A stretch of 64,000 nucleotides of DNA from Alphaproteobacteria bacterium (GTDB lineage Bacteria > Pseudomonadota > Alphaproteobacteria > CACIAM-22H2): contig WGNX01000009.1 in NCBI GenBank assembly GCA_016124335.1, forward strand, positions 184,034-248,033, read 5' to 3'. Within the stretch, counting starts at the first letter, position 1, and every line of letters starts with the position of its first letter. Made by a program: the position numbers and the translations under genes. This document shows, piece by piece, positions 58,059-62,649 of the stretch. The notes under the pieces are model-generated. The model saw only the letters and a list, made by a program, of their open reading frames with translations. It did not search any database and was not told the origin of the DNA.

Positions 58059-58508
58059 ATGGCCGTCCTGACGATCAACGGAAAGCGACACGACGCATCG
58101 GTCGATCCGGAGACGCCGCTCCTTTGGGTCCTTCGCGACACACTGGGCATGACCGGCACAAAATATGGCTGCGGGATCGCGCAATGCGGTGCCTGCACGG
58201 TCCATATCGATGGCGTCCCGGTGCGCAGTTGTTCGCTTCCGGTCAGCGCGGTTGGCGAGGGAAAGATCACGACGATCGAGGGCCTCGCCGACAACGGCAA
58301 GCTCCACAAGATCCAGCAGGCCTGGATCGAGAACGACGTGCCCCAGTGCGGCTACTGCCAGAGTGGCATGATCATGGCCGCCGCCGCCCTTCTCGCCGAA
58401 AAGCCGAACCCGACCGATACCGACATCGACGAAGCGATGACGAACATCTGCCGCTGCGGCACGTACCAGCAGGTGCGTGCGGCAATCCACGCCGCCGCAA
58501 AGGCCTGA
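58059..58508 (+). CDS. (2Fe-2S) small subunit of a xanthine-oxidase-family enzyme (IorA-like)
   Basis: [31 protein letters not shown]. Confidence 0.95.
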
Positions 58509-58522
58509 GGGAGGGCACGACC

Positions 58523-60679
58523 ATGAATGCGATCGCTTCGATGGACCGCCGCTCGTTCCTCGTCGGCTCGACGGCCGGCGTCTTCTCGCTCGGATTTGCG
58601 ATTCCGTTCGCGCGCGCGCAGGGTGCTGCGGGTGCCGTACGCGAGATCAATGCGTGGGTCGTCATCCACCCCGACGACAAGGTCGTGATCCGCATCGCGC
58701 GCTCGGAAATGGGCCAGGGCACGCTGACCGGCCTCGCCCAGCTCGTGGCCGAGGAACTGGAGTGCGACTGGTCGAAGGTCTCGACCGAGTTTCCCACCCC
58801 CGGCCAGAACGTCGCGCGCAATCGCGTGTGGCGGAATTTCTCGACCGGCGGCAGCCGCGGAATCCGCGAGTCGCATGAATATGTCCGCCAGGGGGGGGCG
58901 GCCGCGCGCATGATGCTGGTCGCCGCCGCGGCGAAACGCTGGGGCGTCGCTGAGGCCGAATGTACGGCCGCCAACAGCGTCGTCACGCACGGCGCGTCGG
59001 GCCGCAAGCTCGGCTTCGGCGCACTTGCCGCCGACGCGGCGACGATGGAGCCACCCAAGGAGATCAGGCTCAAGGACGTCAAAGACTGGAAGGTCGCCGG
59101 CAAGGGCGTGAAGCGCCTCGACACCGCACCGAAGGTCGACGGCACGCTCGTCTACGGGATCGACCTGCGTTTTCCCGGAATGCTCACTGCCACGATCCGC
59201 GATTGCCCGGTGCAGGGCGGCAAGCTGAAGAGCTTCGATGCCGCCAAGGTCGAGAAAATGCCGGGCGTGCGCAAGGTCGTGGCCGTCGACGGAACGGGCG
59301 TGGCCGTGATCGCCGACGGCTACTGGCAGGCGCACAAGGCATTGGAAGCGCTGCCGGTGGAATGGGACATGGGACCGGGGGGCAAGACGTCAAGCGCCAC
59401 GATCGACGCGATGCTGACCGAAGGTCTCACGGCCGAGAACGTGTTCATCGGCACGAAGATCGGCGACGCGAAGGCTGCCATCGCCGGAGCGGCGAAGGTT
59501 GTCGAAGCGGTCTATTCGTACCCCTACCAGAACCACGCGACGATGGAGCCGATGAACGCCACGGCCGTGTGGACGGCCGATCGCTGCGAGGTCTGGTGCC
59601 CGACGCAGAACGGCGAAGCCGCACTTGCCGCAGCCGCCGAAGCCGCCGAACTGCCCGTGGCCAAATGCGACGTGCACAAGGCCTTCCTTGGCGGCGGCTT
59701 CGGCCGGCGCGGCCGGTCGGATTATGTCCGTCAGGCCGTGCTGATCGCCAAGCAGATGCCCGGCACGCCGGTCAAGCTCATCTGGTCGCGCGAAGAAGAC
59801 ATGATGCATTGCGCCTTCCACCCGGTGACGAAGTGCAAGATGACCGGCGCGTTCGATGCGGCGGGCAAGCTCGTCGGCCTGCATATGCGCATCTCCGGCC
59901 AATCGATCCTGGCTTCGCTCGCCCCGCAAGGCCTGCAGAACGGCATGGATCCGGTCGTTTTCCAGGGACTGAACGGAGGCGGTGCGGAAGGCCAGTTCGG
60001 CTACGACGTGCCGAACCTGCTGGTCGATCACGCGATGCGCAACACGCATATCCTTGCGGGCTTCTGGCGCGGCGTGAACCTGAACCACAACGCGATCTAC
60101 GTCGAAAGCTTCATGGACGAGCTTGCACGCGCGGCGGGCGAAGACCCGCTTGCCTTCCGTCGCAAGTATCTCAAGCCCAAGCATCGCGCCGTGCTGGACG
60201 CGGCGTGCGAACGCGCCGGCTATGGCAAGGCGGCCCCCGGCATATTTCATGGCGTCGCGCAGATCATGGGTTTCGGCAGCTACGTCGCGGCCTGCGCGGA
60301 AGTGTCGGTCAAGGACGGCAAGCTCAAGATCCACCGCATCGTCGCGGCGACCGACCCCGGCACCGTCGTCAATCCCGCGCAGATCGAGCGTCAGGTCGCA
60401 GGCTCGTTCGTCTACGGCCTTTCGGCAGCCCTTTACGGCGAATGCACCGTCAAGGACGGCGCCATCGAGCAGACGAACTTCGACACCTATCCCGTCCTTC
60501 ACATGGACGAGATGCCGAAGGTCGAAGCCGTGCTCGTGCCGTCGGGCGGCTTCTGGGGCGGCGTGGGCGAACCGACGATCGGCGTGGCTGCGCCCGCGGT
60601 TCTAAATGCGATCTACGCCGCGACGGGCAAGCGCATCCGCTCGCTGCCGTTGTCCAAGCACGATCTGCGCAGCGCGTGA
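58523..60679 (+). CDS. Molybdopterin-binding large subunit, xanthine oxidase family (IorB-like), Tat-exported
   Basis: DRRSFL leader, RSEMGQG, TGGS, HATMEP, GGGFGRR, GGVGEP. Confidence 0.93.
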   Translation: MNAIASMDRRSFLVGSTAGVFSLGFAIPFARAQGAAGAVREINAWVVIHPDDKVVIRIARSEMGQGTLTGLAQLVAEELECDWSKVSTEFPTPGQNVARNRVWRNFSTGGSRGIRESHEYVRQGGAAARMMLVAAAAKRWGVAEAECTAANSVVTHGASGRKLGFGALAADAATMEPPKEIRLKDVKDWKVAGKGVKRLDTAPKVDGTLVYGIDLRFPGMLTATIRDCPVQGGKLKSFDAAKVEKMPGVRKVVAVDGTGVAVIADGYWQAHKALEALPVEWDMGPGGKTSSATIDAMLTEGLTAENVFIGTKIGDAKAAIAGAAKVVEAVYSYPYQNHATMEPMNATAVWTADRCEVWCPTQNGEAALAAAAEAAELPVAKCDVHKAFLGGGFGRRGRSDYVRQAVLIAKQMPGTPVKLIWSREEDMMHCAFHPVTKCKMTGAFDAAGKLVGLHMRISGQSILASLAPQGLQNGMDPVVFQGLNGGGAEGQFGYDVPNLLVDHAMRNTHILAGFWRGVNLNHNAIYVESFMDELARAAGEDPLAFRRKYLKPKHRAVLDAACERAGYGKAAPGIFHGVAQIMGFGSYVAACAEVSVKDGKLKIHRIVAATDPGTVVNPAQIERQVAGSFVYGLSAALYGECTVKDGAIEQTNFDTYPVLHMDEMPKVEAVLVPSGGFWGGVGEPTIGVAAPAVLNAIYAATGKRIRSLPLSKHDLRSA

Positions 60680-61113: not shown

Positions 61114-61559
61114 CGATCGCCATAACACGGCGCATGTTGATCGGCGGGCTCGCGGTGAGCCTGGTTCCCGTTCGCGCGAACGCCACGCCCGAAACCATGC
61201 AGGCGGCCATCGCCGATGCGACCGGCGGGCGGGCGCTGCGCGAAGGCAAGGTCACGCTCGACATCCAGCCGCTGATCGACAATGGCAACACGGTACCCAT
61301 GCGCGTGCGTGTCGATAGCACGATGACGGGCGTCGACCGGGTCAAGGCGCTTCACGTCTTCAACGAGAAGAATCCGCAGCCCCATGTGCTGAGCGTGCGT
61401 TTCGGGCCACGCGCCGGGCGGGCCGAAATCGCCACGCGCATCAAGCTTGCCGATACGCAGAAGGTCATCGCCGTCGCCGAGATGGAGGACGGCACGCTGT
61501 GGACCGCCGCGATCGACGTCATCGTGACGATCGCGGCCTGCATCGAAGGGCTCGAGTGA
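61110..61559 (+). CDS. soxY: SoxY-like sulfur carrier with non-canonical C-terminus
   Basis: TRR Tat leader, DNGNTVP, EKNPQP, TRIKL, ends VIVTIAACIEGLE. Confidence 0.82.
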   Translation: MTIAITRRMLIGGLAVSLVPVRANATPETMQAAIADATGGRALREGKVTLDIQPLIDNGNTVPMRVRVDSTMTGVDRVKALHVFNEKNPQPHVLSVRFGPRAGRAEIATRIKLADTQKVIAVAEMEDGTLWTAAIDVIVTIAACIEGLE

Positions 61560-61879
61560 TGGCGGCCCCGCTCGTCAGCGCCCCCAAGCGTGTCCGGCGC
61601 GGCGACGTCTTCGAAGTGAAGACGCTGATCTCGCATCCGATGGAGACAGGCTTCCGCCCGGGAACGAACGGCACGATCATTCCGCGCGACATCGTCCAGA
61701 AAATGCGCTGCCGTTTTGCCGGCGAGGCCGTTTTCGATCTCGAGCTGTCGCCGGCGATCTCGGCAAATCCATATTTCATCTTCTATGTCCGCGCCGAGAC
61801 CGGCGGCGCGCTTGAAATCGAATGGACGGGCGACAACGGCTTTTCGGCAAGCTACAGCGCCCTGATCCTCGTCGAATGA
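61559..61879 (+). CDS. soxZ: SoxZ
   Basis: VKTLISHPMETG, IP, AISANPYF. Confidence 0.88.
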   Translation: MAAPLVSAPKRVRRGDVFEVKTLISHPMETGFRPGTNGTIIPRDIVQKMRCRFAGEAVFDLELSPAISANPYFIFYVRAETGGALEIEWTGDNGFSASYSALILVE

Positions 61880-62649
61880 TCATGCGCAAGCCTGTCGCTG
61901 CTCTCCTGCTCGCGTCGATGGCCGCAGCCGCATTCGCGCAAGCGCCTGCCGACACGCGCCGTTCGGGCTTCGACGACATGAGCCCGGCGCTGCAGGCCAT
62001 CCAGATGGACGATTTCGCCAATCCCGCCGCCCTGTGGCTTGCCGAAGGCGAAGCCCAGTGGAACACCCGCACCGGGTCAGCAGGAAAATCCTGCGCGGAT
62101 TGCCATGGCACGCCGGCGACCATGCGCGGCGTTGCCGCCCGCTTTCCGGCCTTCGATACGACGCTCGCAAATGTCATCGACCTTGATGCCAAAATCGACG
62201 ACTGCCGGACACGCCGGCAGGGCGCCGCCTCGCCGCCCCACGAAAGCCGCGCGCGCGTGGCGCTTGAGGCATTCGTCGCGCATCAGTCGCGCGGCATGCC
62301 GATCACGTCGGCTGCGGAGCCGCATCTCGACGCGTCGGTCGCGGCAGGCGCGCGCATTTTCCGCCAACGCATGGGGCAGATCGATCTGTCCTGCGCGCAA
62401 TGCCATGACGAGCGCGCGGGCCGGCATCTTGCCGGCACGGCCATTCCGCAAGGCCACCCGACAGGATATCCCGTCTACCGCTCGGAATGGCAAGCCGTCG
62501 GGACGCTGCAACGCCGACTGCGGAATTGCCTGAGCGGCGTGCGCGCGCAGCCCTATGCGTTCGGCTCGCCGGAGATGATCGCACTCGAGGCGTTCCTGAT
62601 GCGTCGTGCCGCCGGGATGAAACTCGAAACGCCCGGCGTTCGTCCCTAG
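61876..62649 (+). CDS. soxA: Diheme cytochrome c SoxA
   Basis: CADCH and CAQCH heme motifs, YPVYR, QRRLRNC active-site Cys, C-terminal PGVRP. Confidence 0.92.
   Translation: MIMRKPVAALLLASMAAAAFAQAPADTRRSGFDDMSPALQAIQMDDFANPAALWLAEGEAQWNTRTGSAGKSCADCHGTPATMRGVAARFPAFDTTLANVIDLDAKIDDCRTRRQGAASPPHESRARVALEAFVAHQSRGMPITSAAEPHLDASVAAGARIFRQRMGQIDLSCAQCHDERAGRHLAGTAIPQGHPTGYPVYRSEWQAVGTLQRRLRNCLSGVRAQPYAFGSPEMIALEAFLMRRAAGMKLETPGVRP

Follow-up and report, generated by a model that had tools for sequence, protein, structure and literature searches.

A conserved operon joins a xanthine-oxidase-family molybdenum enzyme to Sox-like proteins with an AACIE-arm sulfur carrier

Within a 64,000-nucleotide stretch of alphaproteobacterial DNA (hereafter the window), a plus-strand cluster of six genes (58053-62649) brings together the two subunits of a xanthine-oxidase-family molybdenum (Mo) enzyme, iorA and iorB, and soxX, soxY, soxZ, and soxA (table 1). 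With moderate confidence, we propose that these genes form one translationally coupled operon for a Sox-like module that acts in the periplasm independently of SoxB and pairs the Mo enzyme with a SoxY-type carrier bearing an AACIE arm. Because many soil and water bacteria keep the arrangement, most of them without the usual Sox hydrolase, the combination of this NCBIfam-named SoxY with a conserved Mo enzyme operon probably marks an uncharacterized sulfur-handling pathway. The initial annotation of this DNA knew of no functional characterization, and our literature search likewise found no functional study of the module.

Table 1. Features of the operon and its borders (positions in the window)
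Feature	Position	Strand	Evidence
Presumed operon promoter region, 242-nt intergenic, from divergent CoA-transferase gene (- strand) to iorA	57811..58052		ORF list and sequence
iorA-like small subunit, two [2Fe-2S], without signal peptide	58053..58508 (alternative start: second ATG, 58059)	+	
iorB-like molybdopterin-binding large subunit, Tat signal, periplasmic	58523..60679	+	
soxX, monoheme c-type cytochrome, Sec-type signal, GTG start	60676..61113	+	
soxY paralog, AACIE-arm type, twin-arginine signal	61110..61559	+	
soxZ, SoxY partner, without signal peptide	61559..61879	+	
soxA, diheme c-type cytochrome, Sec-type signal	61876..62649	+	
Convergent aldehyde dehydrogenase gene, boundary only, outside the module	62646..63998, runs past window end	-	Pfam Aldedh, E 1.9e-119

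All six genes lie where the initial annotation had placed them, as judged from the open reading frame (ORF) list, the sequence, NCBIfam, and Pfam, and the stop/start overlaps that it reported from the Mo subunit to soxA were read at four of four junctions: the GTG start of soxX lies over the iorB stop (GTGA), soxX/soxY and soxZ/soxA each overlap in ATGA, and the soxZ ATG sits on the soxY stop in TGATG, a 1-nt overlap. The iorA/iorB junction is a 14-nt gap with GGGAGGG and no overlap. A ribosome-binding-like stretch (GGGGAGGA) lies 5' of the ATG at 58053, and a consensus scan of the intergenic region found no sigma-70-like site on its plus strand, the lone site being on the minus strand (57854-57825). 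Downstream, the operon is indeed closed by the convergent aldehyde dehydrogenase gene, whose stop overlaps that of soxA within CTAG; synteny of this neighbor is limited to the window's genus, and elsewhere it is not kept beside the operon. No soxB, soxCD, or flavoprotein gene was found within the window's cluster, and the ORF list and Pfam matches gave no CO-dehydrogenase-type FAD subunit in the operon.

The association of the Mo enzyme with sox genes, which we counted in three partly overlapping sets (relatives, a class-wide sample, and the 80 best species-representative loci), goes far beyond chance, since iorB lies upstream of soxX-soxY in 69 of the 70 related loci (among the 80 best) with at least 2.6 kb of sequence upstream of soxY. 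Among relatives, iorB is adjacent in 14 of 14 non-GGCG SoxY loci, one being cut by its contig end, and it is linked to none of the six GGCG(G/S)-type SoxY loci fetched with flanks. Of the 22 non-GGCG SoxY loci of the class sample, 18 have iorAB in the same cluster, three lie at contig ends, and one is unlinked (G350). The phylogeny points the same way: the tree groups the Sox-linked IorBs (55 rows) in a clade supported at SH-aLRT 100, within which identity to the window's IorB is 55-77%, versus 49% or less for other IorBs. Seven genes alone are conserved (iorA, iorB, an fccB/soxF-like gene, soxX, soxY, soxZ, and soxA, in this order), no flanking gene recurring in more than 26 of the 80 loci, and the unit is found in many alphaproteobacterial families and in a few genomes outside the class. 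The repurposed Sox module of the initial annotation thus stands as a distinct, conserved, Sox-derived unit tied to a Mo enzyme, whereas the three mechanisms offered for it (capture of sulfur from an organosulfur substrate, re-sulfuration of the Mo center, and SoxAX as a substitute for an FAD subunit) are not told apart.

A few loci count against the proposed module. The two halves sit on separate contigs, both mid-contig, in G350; L119 has soxYZA alone despite 10 kb of upstream sequence; L171 and L177, inside or beside the Sox-linked clade, have iorAB alone; and L169 carries iorAB-soxX-soxA without soxYZ, and its genome (G098) gave no TIGR04487 match at E <= 1e-25 in the class sample. In favor of the module, reduced iorAB-soxYZ clusters occur without soxX or soxF (L042, L136, and the first half of L121) or without soxX and with soxA retained (L173, L174), a pattern suggesting that the carrier may be the hub of the module.

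In 67 of 77 related loci, a gene for an FccB/SoxF-like flavoprotein lies between iorB and soxX, sharing with flavocytochrome c sulfide dehydrogenase/SoxF (FccB family) the domains FCSD_central and FCSD-flav_bind as well as a Tat signal. Since most relatives have this gene, the window's operon appears to be a reduced form, and the lack of soxF characterizes the window's lineage rather than the operon family; the initial statement that the operon includes neither soxF nor an FAD subunit accordingly holds for the window but fails for the family. A 54%-identical flavoprotein copy, preceded by a cytochrome c gene in an fccAB-like pair, sits on another contig (C11:319877-321037), and the lineage may have lost the operon's own gene. 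In most relatives, the flavoprotein would add a sulfide-oxidizing or carrier-reactivating step.

With regard to the Sox proteins, the operon shares with the canonical system of the Paracoccus/Rhodovulum type (SoxXA, SoxYZ, SoxB, and SoxCD) the gene order soxX-Y-Z-A, and three of its products pass NCBIfam equivalogs: SoxX (Pfam Cytochrom_C, CVLCH motif) with 69.2 bits for TIGR04485 (cut-off 61), SoxZ (Pfam SoxZ, E 6.9e-28) with 85.4 bits for TIGR04490 (cut-off 76), and SoxA, which has two CxxCH motifs, with 220.1 bits for TIGR04484 (cut-off 110). Aligned with the solved chain 1h31_A (E 3.2e-44), SoxA retains both heme motifs (CADCH and CAQCH) and the active-site RNC cysteine (C218), the latter kept in 114 of 114 aligned sequences. 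SoxY shares the canonical fold and carrier cysteine, its C144 being matched in alignment to the C-terminal cysteine of a solved SoxY (chain 2oxg_Y), but its arm differs: the tail reads ...TIAACIEGLE in place of GGCGG, the altered arm follows (L/I)AAC(I/V/L/T)(E/D)xx, and none of the 54 operon-linked orthologs departs from A143 and C144. The protein scores 181.3 bits for TIGR04487, "SoxY-related AACIE arm protein" (cut-off 172), and fails the true SoxY model TIGR04488 (95.8 bits against a cut-off of 125); the naming of this paralog is thus not new, being already present in NCBI annotation. The operon further departs from the canonical one in lacking soxB and soxCD and in joining a xanthine-oxidase-family Mo enzyme via overlapping codons. 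Every part of the module has, or can hitch-hike on, a Tat or Sec export signal.

As for the Mo enzyme, IorA matches Pfam Fer2_2 (E 9.9e-31) and Fer2, contains the cysteine motifs CGIAQCGAC and QCGYCQSG...CRCG, and has NCBIfam matches solely to gamma/iron-sulfur subunits of Mo hydroxylases, each under its cut-off. IorB begins with a twin-arginine N-terminus (MNAIASMDRRSFLVGS), matches Pfam MoCoBD_1 and MoCoBD_2, and attains the cut-off of no NCBIfam equivalog; among solved structures it comes closest to 8gy3_C ("Large subunit of aldehyde dehydrogenase"), with which its residues 7-716 align end to end at E 8.3e-73. In 54 orthologs, R9, R10, GGGFGRR (390-396), and the glutamate of GVGEP (E683) are invariant, and the Mo subunit retains the cofactor-binding motifs and catalytic glutamate of its family. 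Both IorAB-type two-subunit Mo hydroxylases and 8gy3 share with the operon a small subunit with two [2Fe-2S] clusters, a large Tat-exported molybdopterin subunit, and the lack of a CO-dehydrogenase-type FAD subunit; the operon differs from them in co-encoding a protein sulfur carrier, in the separate clade of its IorBs, and in the missing equivalog assignment. We take the 8gy3 aldehyde dehydrogenase to be a three-subunit complex whose electrons pass to a c-type cytochrome subunit; the partner cytochromes here are SoxX and SoxA, not a multiheme subunit.

In the reading that we prefer, SoxAX would oxidatively couple a sulfur anion (sulfide, polysulfide, thiosulfate, or thiol) to Cys144 of SoxY, the remodeled arm would present the bound group to IorB, and IorB would oxidize it with water-derived oxygen, standing in for the SoxCD and/or SoxB steps, with electrons flowing from the iron-sulfur clusters of IorA through the SoxXA hemes to the respiratory chain. 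We infer a possible activity of IorAB on SoxY-bound sulfur by analogy with SoxCD, a Mo enzyme of the sulfite-oxidase family that has a cytochrome c subunit and oxidizes carrier-bound sulfur in the canonical system. The analogy lies in a periplasmic Mo enzyme and electron-transfer partner encoded with SoxYZ, and stops at the protein superfamily (Oxidored_molyb in SoxCD versus MoCoBD_1/2 in the operon); this genome has three Oxidored_molyb genes, all away from the operon. Complex prediction, a check suggested in the initial annotation, gave IorB with SoxY a score of 0.60 versus 0.00 for the best control and a verdict of weak support, in a band where, by the tool's own account, most calls are incorrect unless the pairing was already likely, and it returned no interface. 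The prediction used custom alignments; its runs shared at least 90% of contacts, and partner pLDDT was no lower than 82. In calibration, 58 of the 80 solved complexes and two of the 110 mismatched pairs attain the mark, and among pairs that attain it, scores of 0.60 or less comprise seven of the 80 solved complexes and both mismatches. Several points weigh against the preferred reading: we know of no xanthine-oxidase-family enzyme acting on a protein-bound or sulfur-centered substrate, no product-release enzyme is evident, and a search for IorB-SoxY fusions among longer proteins gave four matches, none with Mo-binding domains. Likewise, beyond GGG (485-487) and the C-terminal RSA (716-718), the latter common to the second-type clade, IorB showed no clade-specific insertion of at least three residues.

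It is unlikely, in our view, that IorAB is instead an ordinary dehydrogenase of aldehydes or N-heterocycles in the periplasm, with SoxXA as its c-type cytochrome acceptor and SoxYZ as an accessory, for example protective or regulatory. The annotation of 8gy3_C, the lack of an FAD subunit, and the L169 locus would suit such an enzyme, but the clusters that keep iorAB-soxYZ without soxX (L042, L136, L173, L174), the invariant alanine and carrier cysteine of SoxY, and the sulfide-dehydrogenase-type flavoprotein of most loci, which points to sulfur chemistry, would not. SoxA, moreover, probably does more than carry electrons, since it keeps its active-site cysteine throughout and scores twice its equivalog cut-off. 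The idea that SoxAX does no more than replace an FAD subunit is weakened by this same cysteine and by the existence of iorAB-soxYZ clusters without soxAX.

We regard as improbable an attack of IorAB on a free organosulfur compound (a thione- or thiol-substituted heterocycle), in which sulfur would be swapped for oxygen, SoxY would catch the sulfane sulfur, and SoxAX, plus the flavoprotein where present, would process it. IorB-type enzymes hydroxylate the carbon adjoining a ring nitrogen, the operon pairs a Mo hydroxylase with sulfur-handling proteins, and its carriers, by record titles, are mostly soil, freshwater, and plant-associated heterotrophs, not classical sulfur lithotrophs, all of which would agree with this chemistry. 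However, no transporter, regulator, or ring-cleavage gene is conserved beside the operon in the 80 loci, and the weakly predicted IorB-SoxY contact would not be needed.

Turning to SoxB, the module does not appear to depend on it in the sampled genomes that lack it, since in 19 of the 24 operon-bearing genomes of the class-wide sample no SoxB scores above its family cut-off, 16 of these 19 being at least 95% complete; SoxB is also missing in 5 of 14 relatives (completeness 96-99%). In Bradyrhizobium diazoefficiens, according to a published study, soxY1 alone of two soxY homologs is essential for thiosulfate oxidation, which would fit this picture if soxY2 is of the AACIE-arm type. We claim independence for those genomes and not for the window's organism, because SoxB is present in nine of the ten operon genomes of its genus. 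That genus-level presence, the window's assembly being merely 74.6% complete, and the "true" Sox models passed by SoxX, SoxZ, and SoxA would accord with ordinary thiosulfate oxidation, in which SoxAX/YZ act with a SoxB (and SoxCD) encoded at another place and happen to adjoin an unrelated Mo enzyme. We nevertheless hold this explanation to be very improbable, and largely refuted by distribution: genomes with SoxB have a separate GGCGG-type soxY beside soxB (e.g., G019, G014, G012), the operon's SoxY fails the true-SoxY model, and the iorAB linkage and overlapping codons also oppose it. The view that the cluster is not a fragment of a thiosulfate-oxidizing system is thereby upheld, and the objection that a SoxB from elsewhere might serve it is answered for the 19 genomes without one.

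The re-sulfuration of the IorB Mo=S ligand by Sox proteins, also put forward in the initial annotation, drew no support and seems hardly credible: the window's genome (74.6% complete) yielded no maturation protein of the XdhC family, but Tat substrates receive their cofactor before they leave the cytoplasm, seven conserved genes, two of them for heme proteins and one for a flavoprotein, would be a heavy repair apparatus, and we know of no precedent for Sox-type periplasmic re-sulfuration of Mo.

A last likeness concerns TIGR04557, the quinoprotein dehydrogenase-associated SoxYZ-like carrier, to our knowledge functionally uncharacterized, which is also derived from SoxYZ and named for a periplasmic dehydrogenase rather than for Sox. 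It is a fused YZ protein with another partner enzyme, and the window's SoxY (53.4 bits) and SoxZ (50.1 bits) match it weakly, neither being a member by score (cut-off 140).

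The six genes iorA, iorB, soxX, soxY, soxZ and soxA follow one another on the forward strand of the window, and their gene calls, their domain and NCBIfam matches and the junctions read from the sequence bear out in every particular what the initial annotation had described, namely a Mo enzyme coupled to soxXYZA with no SoxB gene in the operon (table below). From iorB to soxA, stop and start codons meet, in order, in GTGA, ATGA, TGATG and ATGA, and 14 nt containing GGGAGGG separate iorA from iorB. At the far end, the stop codons of soxA and of the convergent aldehyde dehydrogenase gene overlap in a CTAG palindrome with no terminator-like hairpin between the two genes, the nearest one lying inside the dehydrogenase gene. 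Consensus scans returned no promoter-like site in the operon interior and only three terminator-like sites, which is below the shuffled expectation. IorA carries two [2Fe-2S] binding motifs (Fer2 and Fer2_2, with their cysteine motifs in the translation) and no signal peptide, and the N-terminus of IorB, MNAIASMDRRSFLVGS, is a twin-arginine signal. Together the genes make up a periplasmic set with a single Mo centre, a pair of [2Fe-2S] clusters, three c-type haems and a carrier that bears a cysteine.

Features of the operon and its surroundings, in window coordinates
Feature	Position	Strand	Assignment
SoxB-model match (G000:C5:183932-185053)	about 1-1020	-	119.2 bits vs cut-off 550; probably a 5'-nucleotidase-family protein, not SoxB
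iorA	58053 or 58059 to 58508	+	Fer2 and Fer2_2; small Fe-S subunit of xanthine-oxidase-family enzymes
iorB	58523-60679	+	twin-arginine signal; both molybdopterin-binding domains (Pfam MoCoBD_1, E 1.5e-35; MoCoBD_2, E 1.1e-31)
soxX	60676 (GTG) to 61113	+	TIGR04485, 69.2 bits vs cut-off 61; one CxxCH
soxY	61110-61559	+	TIGR04487, 181.3 bits vs cut-off 172 (E 8.7e-54)
soxZ	61559-61879	+	NCBIfam Sox model, 85.4 bits vs cut-off 76
soxA	61876-62649	+	TIGR04484, 220.1 bits vs cut-off 110; two CxxCH
CTAG palindrome	62646-62649		overlapping stop codons of soxA and the aldehyde dehydrogenase gene
Nearest terminator-like hairpin	62759-62772		inside the aldehyde dehydrogenase gene

Whereas the true SoxY of the Sox thiosulfate system ends in GGCGG, the SoxY of the window ends in ...VTIAACIEGLE, with A-A-C-I-E in its place. 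It is a member of TIGR04487, "SoxY-related AACIE arm protein", a name under which NCBI annotation already knows this paralogue, and it stays below the true-SoxY model TIGR04488 (95.8 bits vs a cut-off of 125; GGCGG absent). Residues A143 and C144 do not vary across 54 orthologues, and when the protein is aligned with the solved SoxY chain 2oxg_Y, Cys144 falls on its terminal carrier cysteine; the SoxY fold and cysteine have thus been retained and the flexible GGCGG arm swapped for one that is bulkier, acidic and slightly longer. The SoxAX cytochrome complex of the Sox system is present in the window, both proteins scoring above their model cut-offs, and the partner proteins SoxA and IorB look catalytically intact, as judged from their aligned residues. 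Indeed, the alignment of SoxA with the solved dihaem chain 1h31_A (E 3.2e-44) takes in both CxxCH motifs and the active-site RNC cysteine, which is kept in all 114 aligned SoxA sequences, operon-linked and canonical together. Invariant across 54 IorB orthologues are the two arginines of the signal, the GGGFGRR motif and, in GVGEP, the glutamate E683, which would correspond to the catalytic base of bovine xanthine oxidase.

The initial annotation had made its proposal depend on whether the linkage of these genes is conserved, and conserved it proved to be in three samples, which overlap insofar as four loci of the third come from genomes also in the first. In the first, 40 relatives were searched with TIGR04487 and about 19 kb were fetched around the 20 best SoxY matches: iorB adjoins SoxY at all 14 loci with a tail other than GGCG (AACIE, AACVE, GACAYM or GACAEVFE), with iorA also visible at 13 of these and L025 cut by a contig end, and no iorAB occurs in the fetched stretch at any of the 6 loci whose SoxY ends in GGCGG or GGCGS. 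The second sample comprised 400 genomes spread evenly over the class (401 with the window's own), 19 of which exceed the TIGR04487 cut-off; it yielded 27 loci, 22 with an A/G/S/P-A-C tail and 5 with a GGC tail. When wider stretches were fetched, iorAB lay in the same cluster at 18 of the 22. Another three (in G135, G398 and G190) are cut by contig ends and have an IorB of 60-73% identity on another contig, near the contig end in G398 and G190, and in the one left, G350, soxXYZA and iorAB lie mid-contig on different contigs, so that the two halves are truly apart. For the third sample, species-representative genomes were scanned with a pattern derived from an alignment of ten SoxY orthologues, which matched 599 stretches, at least 529 of them confirmed by tblastn. 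Among the best 80 of these at least 529 loci, 51 have the order iorA-iorB-fccB-like-soxX-soxY-soxZ-soxA, 7 have the form found in the window, iorA-iorB-soxX-soxY-soxZ-soxA, and the rest mostly show the same architectures cut by contig ends; iorB is upstream of soxY in 69 of the 70 with at least 2.6 kb of upstream sequence, the sole exception, L119, being soxYZA alone with no masked bases. A phylum-wide sample added 12 AAC-tailed loci, in all of which soxX is immediately preceded by iorB or the flavoprotein gene, and three of them (in G639, G696 and G675) belong to genomes outside the class. No conserved genes were found beyond the seven-gene core, the non-core ORFs of three reference loci recurring in at most 26 of the 80 loci, and the genes flanking the operon in the window (CoA-transferase, enoyl-CoA hydratase, GntR-family and aldehyde dehydrogenase) are syntenic inside the genus only. 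The seven-gene set is inherited as a unit, and the operon is a real, conserved and widespread one, in which a variation on the Sox carrier system is coupled to an enzyme of a Mo family.

The seventh gene, located between iorB and soxX, encodes a twin-arginine protein of 418-439 residues in the nine loci first inspected, and its copy at L070 contains FCSD_central, FCSD-flav_bind and Pyr_redox_2, the domains found in SoxF/FccB, the flavoprotein of flavocytochrome c sulfide dehydrogenase. It is found in 67 of the 77 loci with at least 1 kb upstream of soxY (among the best 80 of at least 529). On an IorB tree onto which architectures were mapped (quick method, LG+G4, rooted on three long outgroup rows), the gene switches between present and absent at least nine times, gains and losses not being formally separated, and the small IorB clade of the window is nested among lineages that have the gene. 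Its frequency and this nesting together indicate that the operon of the window is a reduced form. Elsewhere in the window's genome, at C11:315258-321040, lies an FccB-like gene 54% identical to the operon-type copy of L070, preceded by an ORF with a cytochrome-c-like tail and, farther upstream, by a membrane protein with a YeeE/YedE-like appearance at its N-terminus; the stretch is probably a flavocytochrome c sulfide dehydrogenase locus in its own right. On a plasmid of Methylobacterium sp. NMS14P (L199), an extra 97-residue gene annotated "cytochrome C" (4859-5152) stands between the Mo subunit and flavoprotein genes, and with the flavoprotein it would complete a flavocytochrome c pair within the operon.

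Other clusters depart further from the core. A second IorB clade, 47-49% identical to the window's protein, lies directly before soxY-soxZ, with or without soxA, at loci that have neither soxX nor the flavoprotein gene (L042 in G023, L173 in G291 and L174 in G128) and whose carriers end in GACAEVFE or SGACAETFE; the cluster of G023 consists of iorA-iorB-soxY-soxZ only, an arrangement also seen at L136 and in the first half of L121. At L175 (G120:C18, 2351-13691), two tandem iorAB pairs are followed by SoxY, soxZ, two unassigned ORFs, a small cytochrome c, fccB, soxX and soxA, and this SoxY has 216 residues, 36 of them after GACVED, which places the cysteine away from the C-terminus. L169 (G098:C1, 5843-9916) reads iorA-iorB-soxX-soxA, soxYZ being absent, with an IorB 70% identical to that of the window; in the class search, its genome gave no TIGR04487 match at E <= 1e-25. 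Finally, L171 and L177 hold iorAB alone. These variants point to IorAB as the constant element and to SoxYZ as its commonest minimal companion, though not its sole one. In G035 (L034, C53), the order is iorA-iorB-soxY-soxZ-soxA-soxX, with soxX after soxA. At that locus, with one in-frame TGA, and at L029 (G017:C27), iorB was read in two pieces, which could reflect a broken gene or an assembly error.

The Mo enzyme itself shares with IorAB-type Mo hydroxylases, which have two subunits and none for FAD, an Fe-S small subunit and a molybdopterin large subunit, and no NCBIfam equivalog reaches its cut-off for IorB, the best being XdhA (176.7 bits vs 780). By identity to the window's IorB, the class-sample matches fall into a group at 55-77% and another at 49% or less, and the 55-77% group is the Sox-linked one, apart from exceptions among the variants described above. 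In the tree, 55 rows form one clade (SH-aLRT 100). Beyond GGG 485-487 and the C-terminal RSA 716-718, the latter common to the second-type clade too, no clade-specific IorB insertions of three or more residues were found. The window's genome also has three sulfite-oxidase-family genes (C8:64420-64929, C1:452314-452742 and C4:79126-79587).

In complex predictions pairing IorB residues 35-718 with SoxY residues 26-149, each with a 54-row alignment, the score was 0.60 (0.60, 0.59 and 0.60 in three runs), rated as weak support and reported with no interface, and the best of three controls gave 0.00. In calibration, 58 of 80 solved complexes and 2 of 110 mismatched pairs attained the mark, and scores of at most 0.60 included only 7 of the 80 solved complexes and both mismatches, a calibration that holds only roughly, own alignments having been used here. 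At least 90% of contacts are shared between the runs, with a partner pLDDT of at least 82. Given the strong prior from gene linkage, we take this score as mild support and no more. No natural IorB-SoxY fusion was found, as the four matches among proteins longer than the query have no Mo-binding domain; an 883-aa open frame over iorB and soxY in G128 proved to be an alternative frame only, the genes being separate with a stop after iorB.

Our main reading, to which we give about an even chance, is a SoxB-independent Sox-like module in which IorAB works with the AACIE-arm SoxY. More tentatively, it is possible that this xanthine-oxidase-family Mo hydroxylase uses sulfur tethered to the SoxY cysteine and that, with SoxAX and usually the FccB-like flavoprotein, it would form a periplasmic route of sulfur oxidation that needs neither SoxB nor SoxCD and is widespread among heterotrophic Alphaproteobacteria, whether plant-associated or from soil or fresh water. 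In the main reading, SoxAX would still join sulfur to the SoxY cysteine by a sulfur-sulfur bond, the new arm would be fitted to the IorB funnel rather than to SoxB/SoxCD, the carrier-bound group would be oxidised by IorB, and electrons would pass from IorA to the SoxXA haems. As a speculation that is chemically coherent, IorAB might oxidise the SoxY persulfide to a thiosulfonate, with displacement by incoming sulfide to follow. If the Mo enzyme did act on a carrier-bound group, it would be the first member of the xanthine-oxidase family to take a substrate that is tethered to a protein or centred on sulfur, and Sox-bound sulfur would have a third route, after SoxB/SoxCD and reverse Dsr/sHdr.

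IorB could also act on a conventional substrate. From end to end it matches the large subunit of an aldehyde dehydrogenase, solved as chain 8gy3_C (E 8.3e-73), its GVGEP falling on GLGEP. Enzymes of the 8gy3 type have three subunits, with a dedicated multihaem cytochrome c gene beside the other two, whereas no multihaem cytochrome gene is present in the operon of the window, where iorB is followed by soxX and later by soxA. SoxXA may simply serve an aldehyde or heterocycle dehydrogenase as its cytochrome partner, and the L169 cluster, where iorAB keeps soxXA only, would suit such a role; set beside the clusters in which iorAB keeps soxYZ and no soxX, we find it unlikely. Capture of sulfur from an organosulfur substrate, another of the functions first put forward, appears somewhat more doubtful still.

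With regard to thiosulfate, a complete Sox system needs SoxB, and the operon has SoxAX but no SoxB. None was found elsewhere in the window's genome either, an assembly of 2.9 Mb in 15 contigs that is 74.6% complete, its only match to the SoxB model being the one in the table; in the same 74.6% complete assembly the operon's SoxY is the only one. This absence is inconclusive because SoxB is present in 9 of the 10 other operon genomes of the genus, the nearest two (G014 and G016) among them. Over a broader range, 5 of 14 operon genomes among the relatives lack SoxB at 96-99% completeness, as do 19 of 24 in the class sample, 16 of these 19 being at least 95% complete, and SoxB occurs in 43 of the 401 genomes of that sample; where present, it adjoins a separate GGCGG-type or divergent soxY. 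On this basis, the module cannot in general rely on a SoxB from elsewhere, and ordinary thiosulfate oxidation with a distant SoxB, which the initial annotation had named as fatal to its proposal, is very improbable across the operon genomes at large, even if the window's own incomplete genome and its genus leave room for it. For repair of the Mo=S ligand we see scarcely any chance. No XdhC/CoxI-family maturation protein was matched in the 74.6% complete assembly.

The operon is common, given at least 529 tblastn-confirmed stretches in species-representative genomes, and most of its carriers, among them Reyranella, Pseudolabrys, Xanthobacteraceae, Vineibacter, Enhydrobacter, Neorhizobium and Methylobacterium, are not seen as sulfur oxidisers. 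As 19 of 24 operon genomes in the class sample are without SoxB, metagenome surveys that use soxA, soxX, soxY or soxZ as thiosulfate markers likely miscount them. The literature searched gave no description or functional test of the operon and no link in print between this Mo-enzyme family and the Sox carrier system: in the portions consulted, isoquinoline 1-oxidoreductase and soxY appear in unrelated contexts (PMC4782131), and sox passages concern canonical clusters (PMC12815253; PMC5894208). Cultured carriers exist, so that the function of the operon is directly testable; they include Enhydrobacter aerosaccus ATCC 27094, Reyranella soli NBRC 108950 and Vineibacter terrae CC-CFT640, besides the two strains named next. 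In Neorhizobium galegae VafX2 and Methylobacterium sp. NMS14P, it is annotated as (2Fe-2S)-binding protein, molybdopterin cofactor-binding domain-containing protein, NAD(P)/FAD-dependent oxidoreductase, SoxX, SoxY-related AACIE arm protein, SoxZ and SoxA, although the VafX2 table has no Mo-subunit gene, yet a gap of the right size there. An AAC-tailed cluster is also present in a Bradyrhizobium MAG (L164), and Bradyrhizobium diazoefficiens has two soxY homologues, of which only soxY1 is essential for thiosulfate oxidation (PMC5748708).
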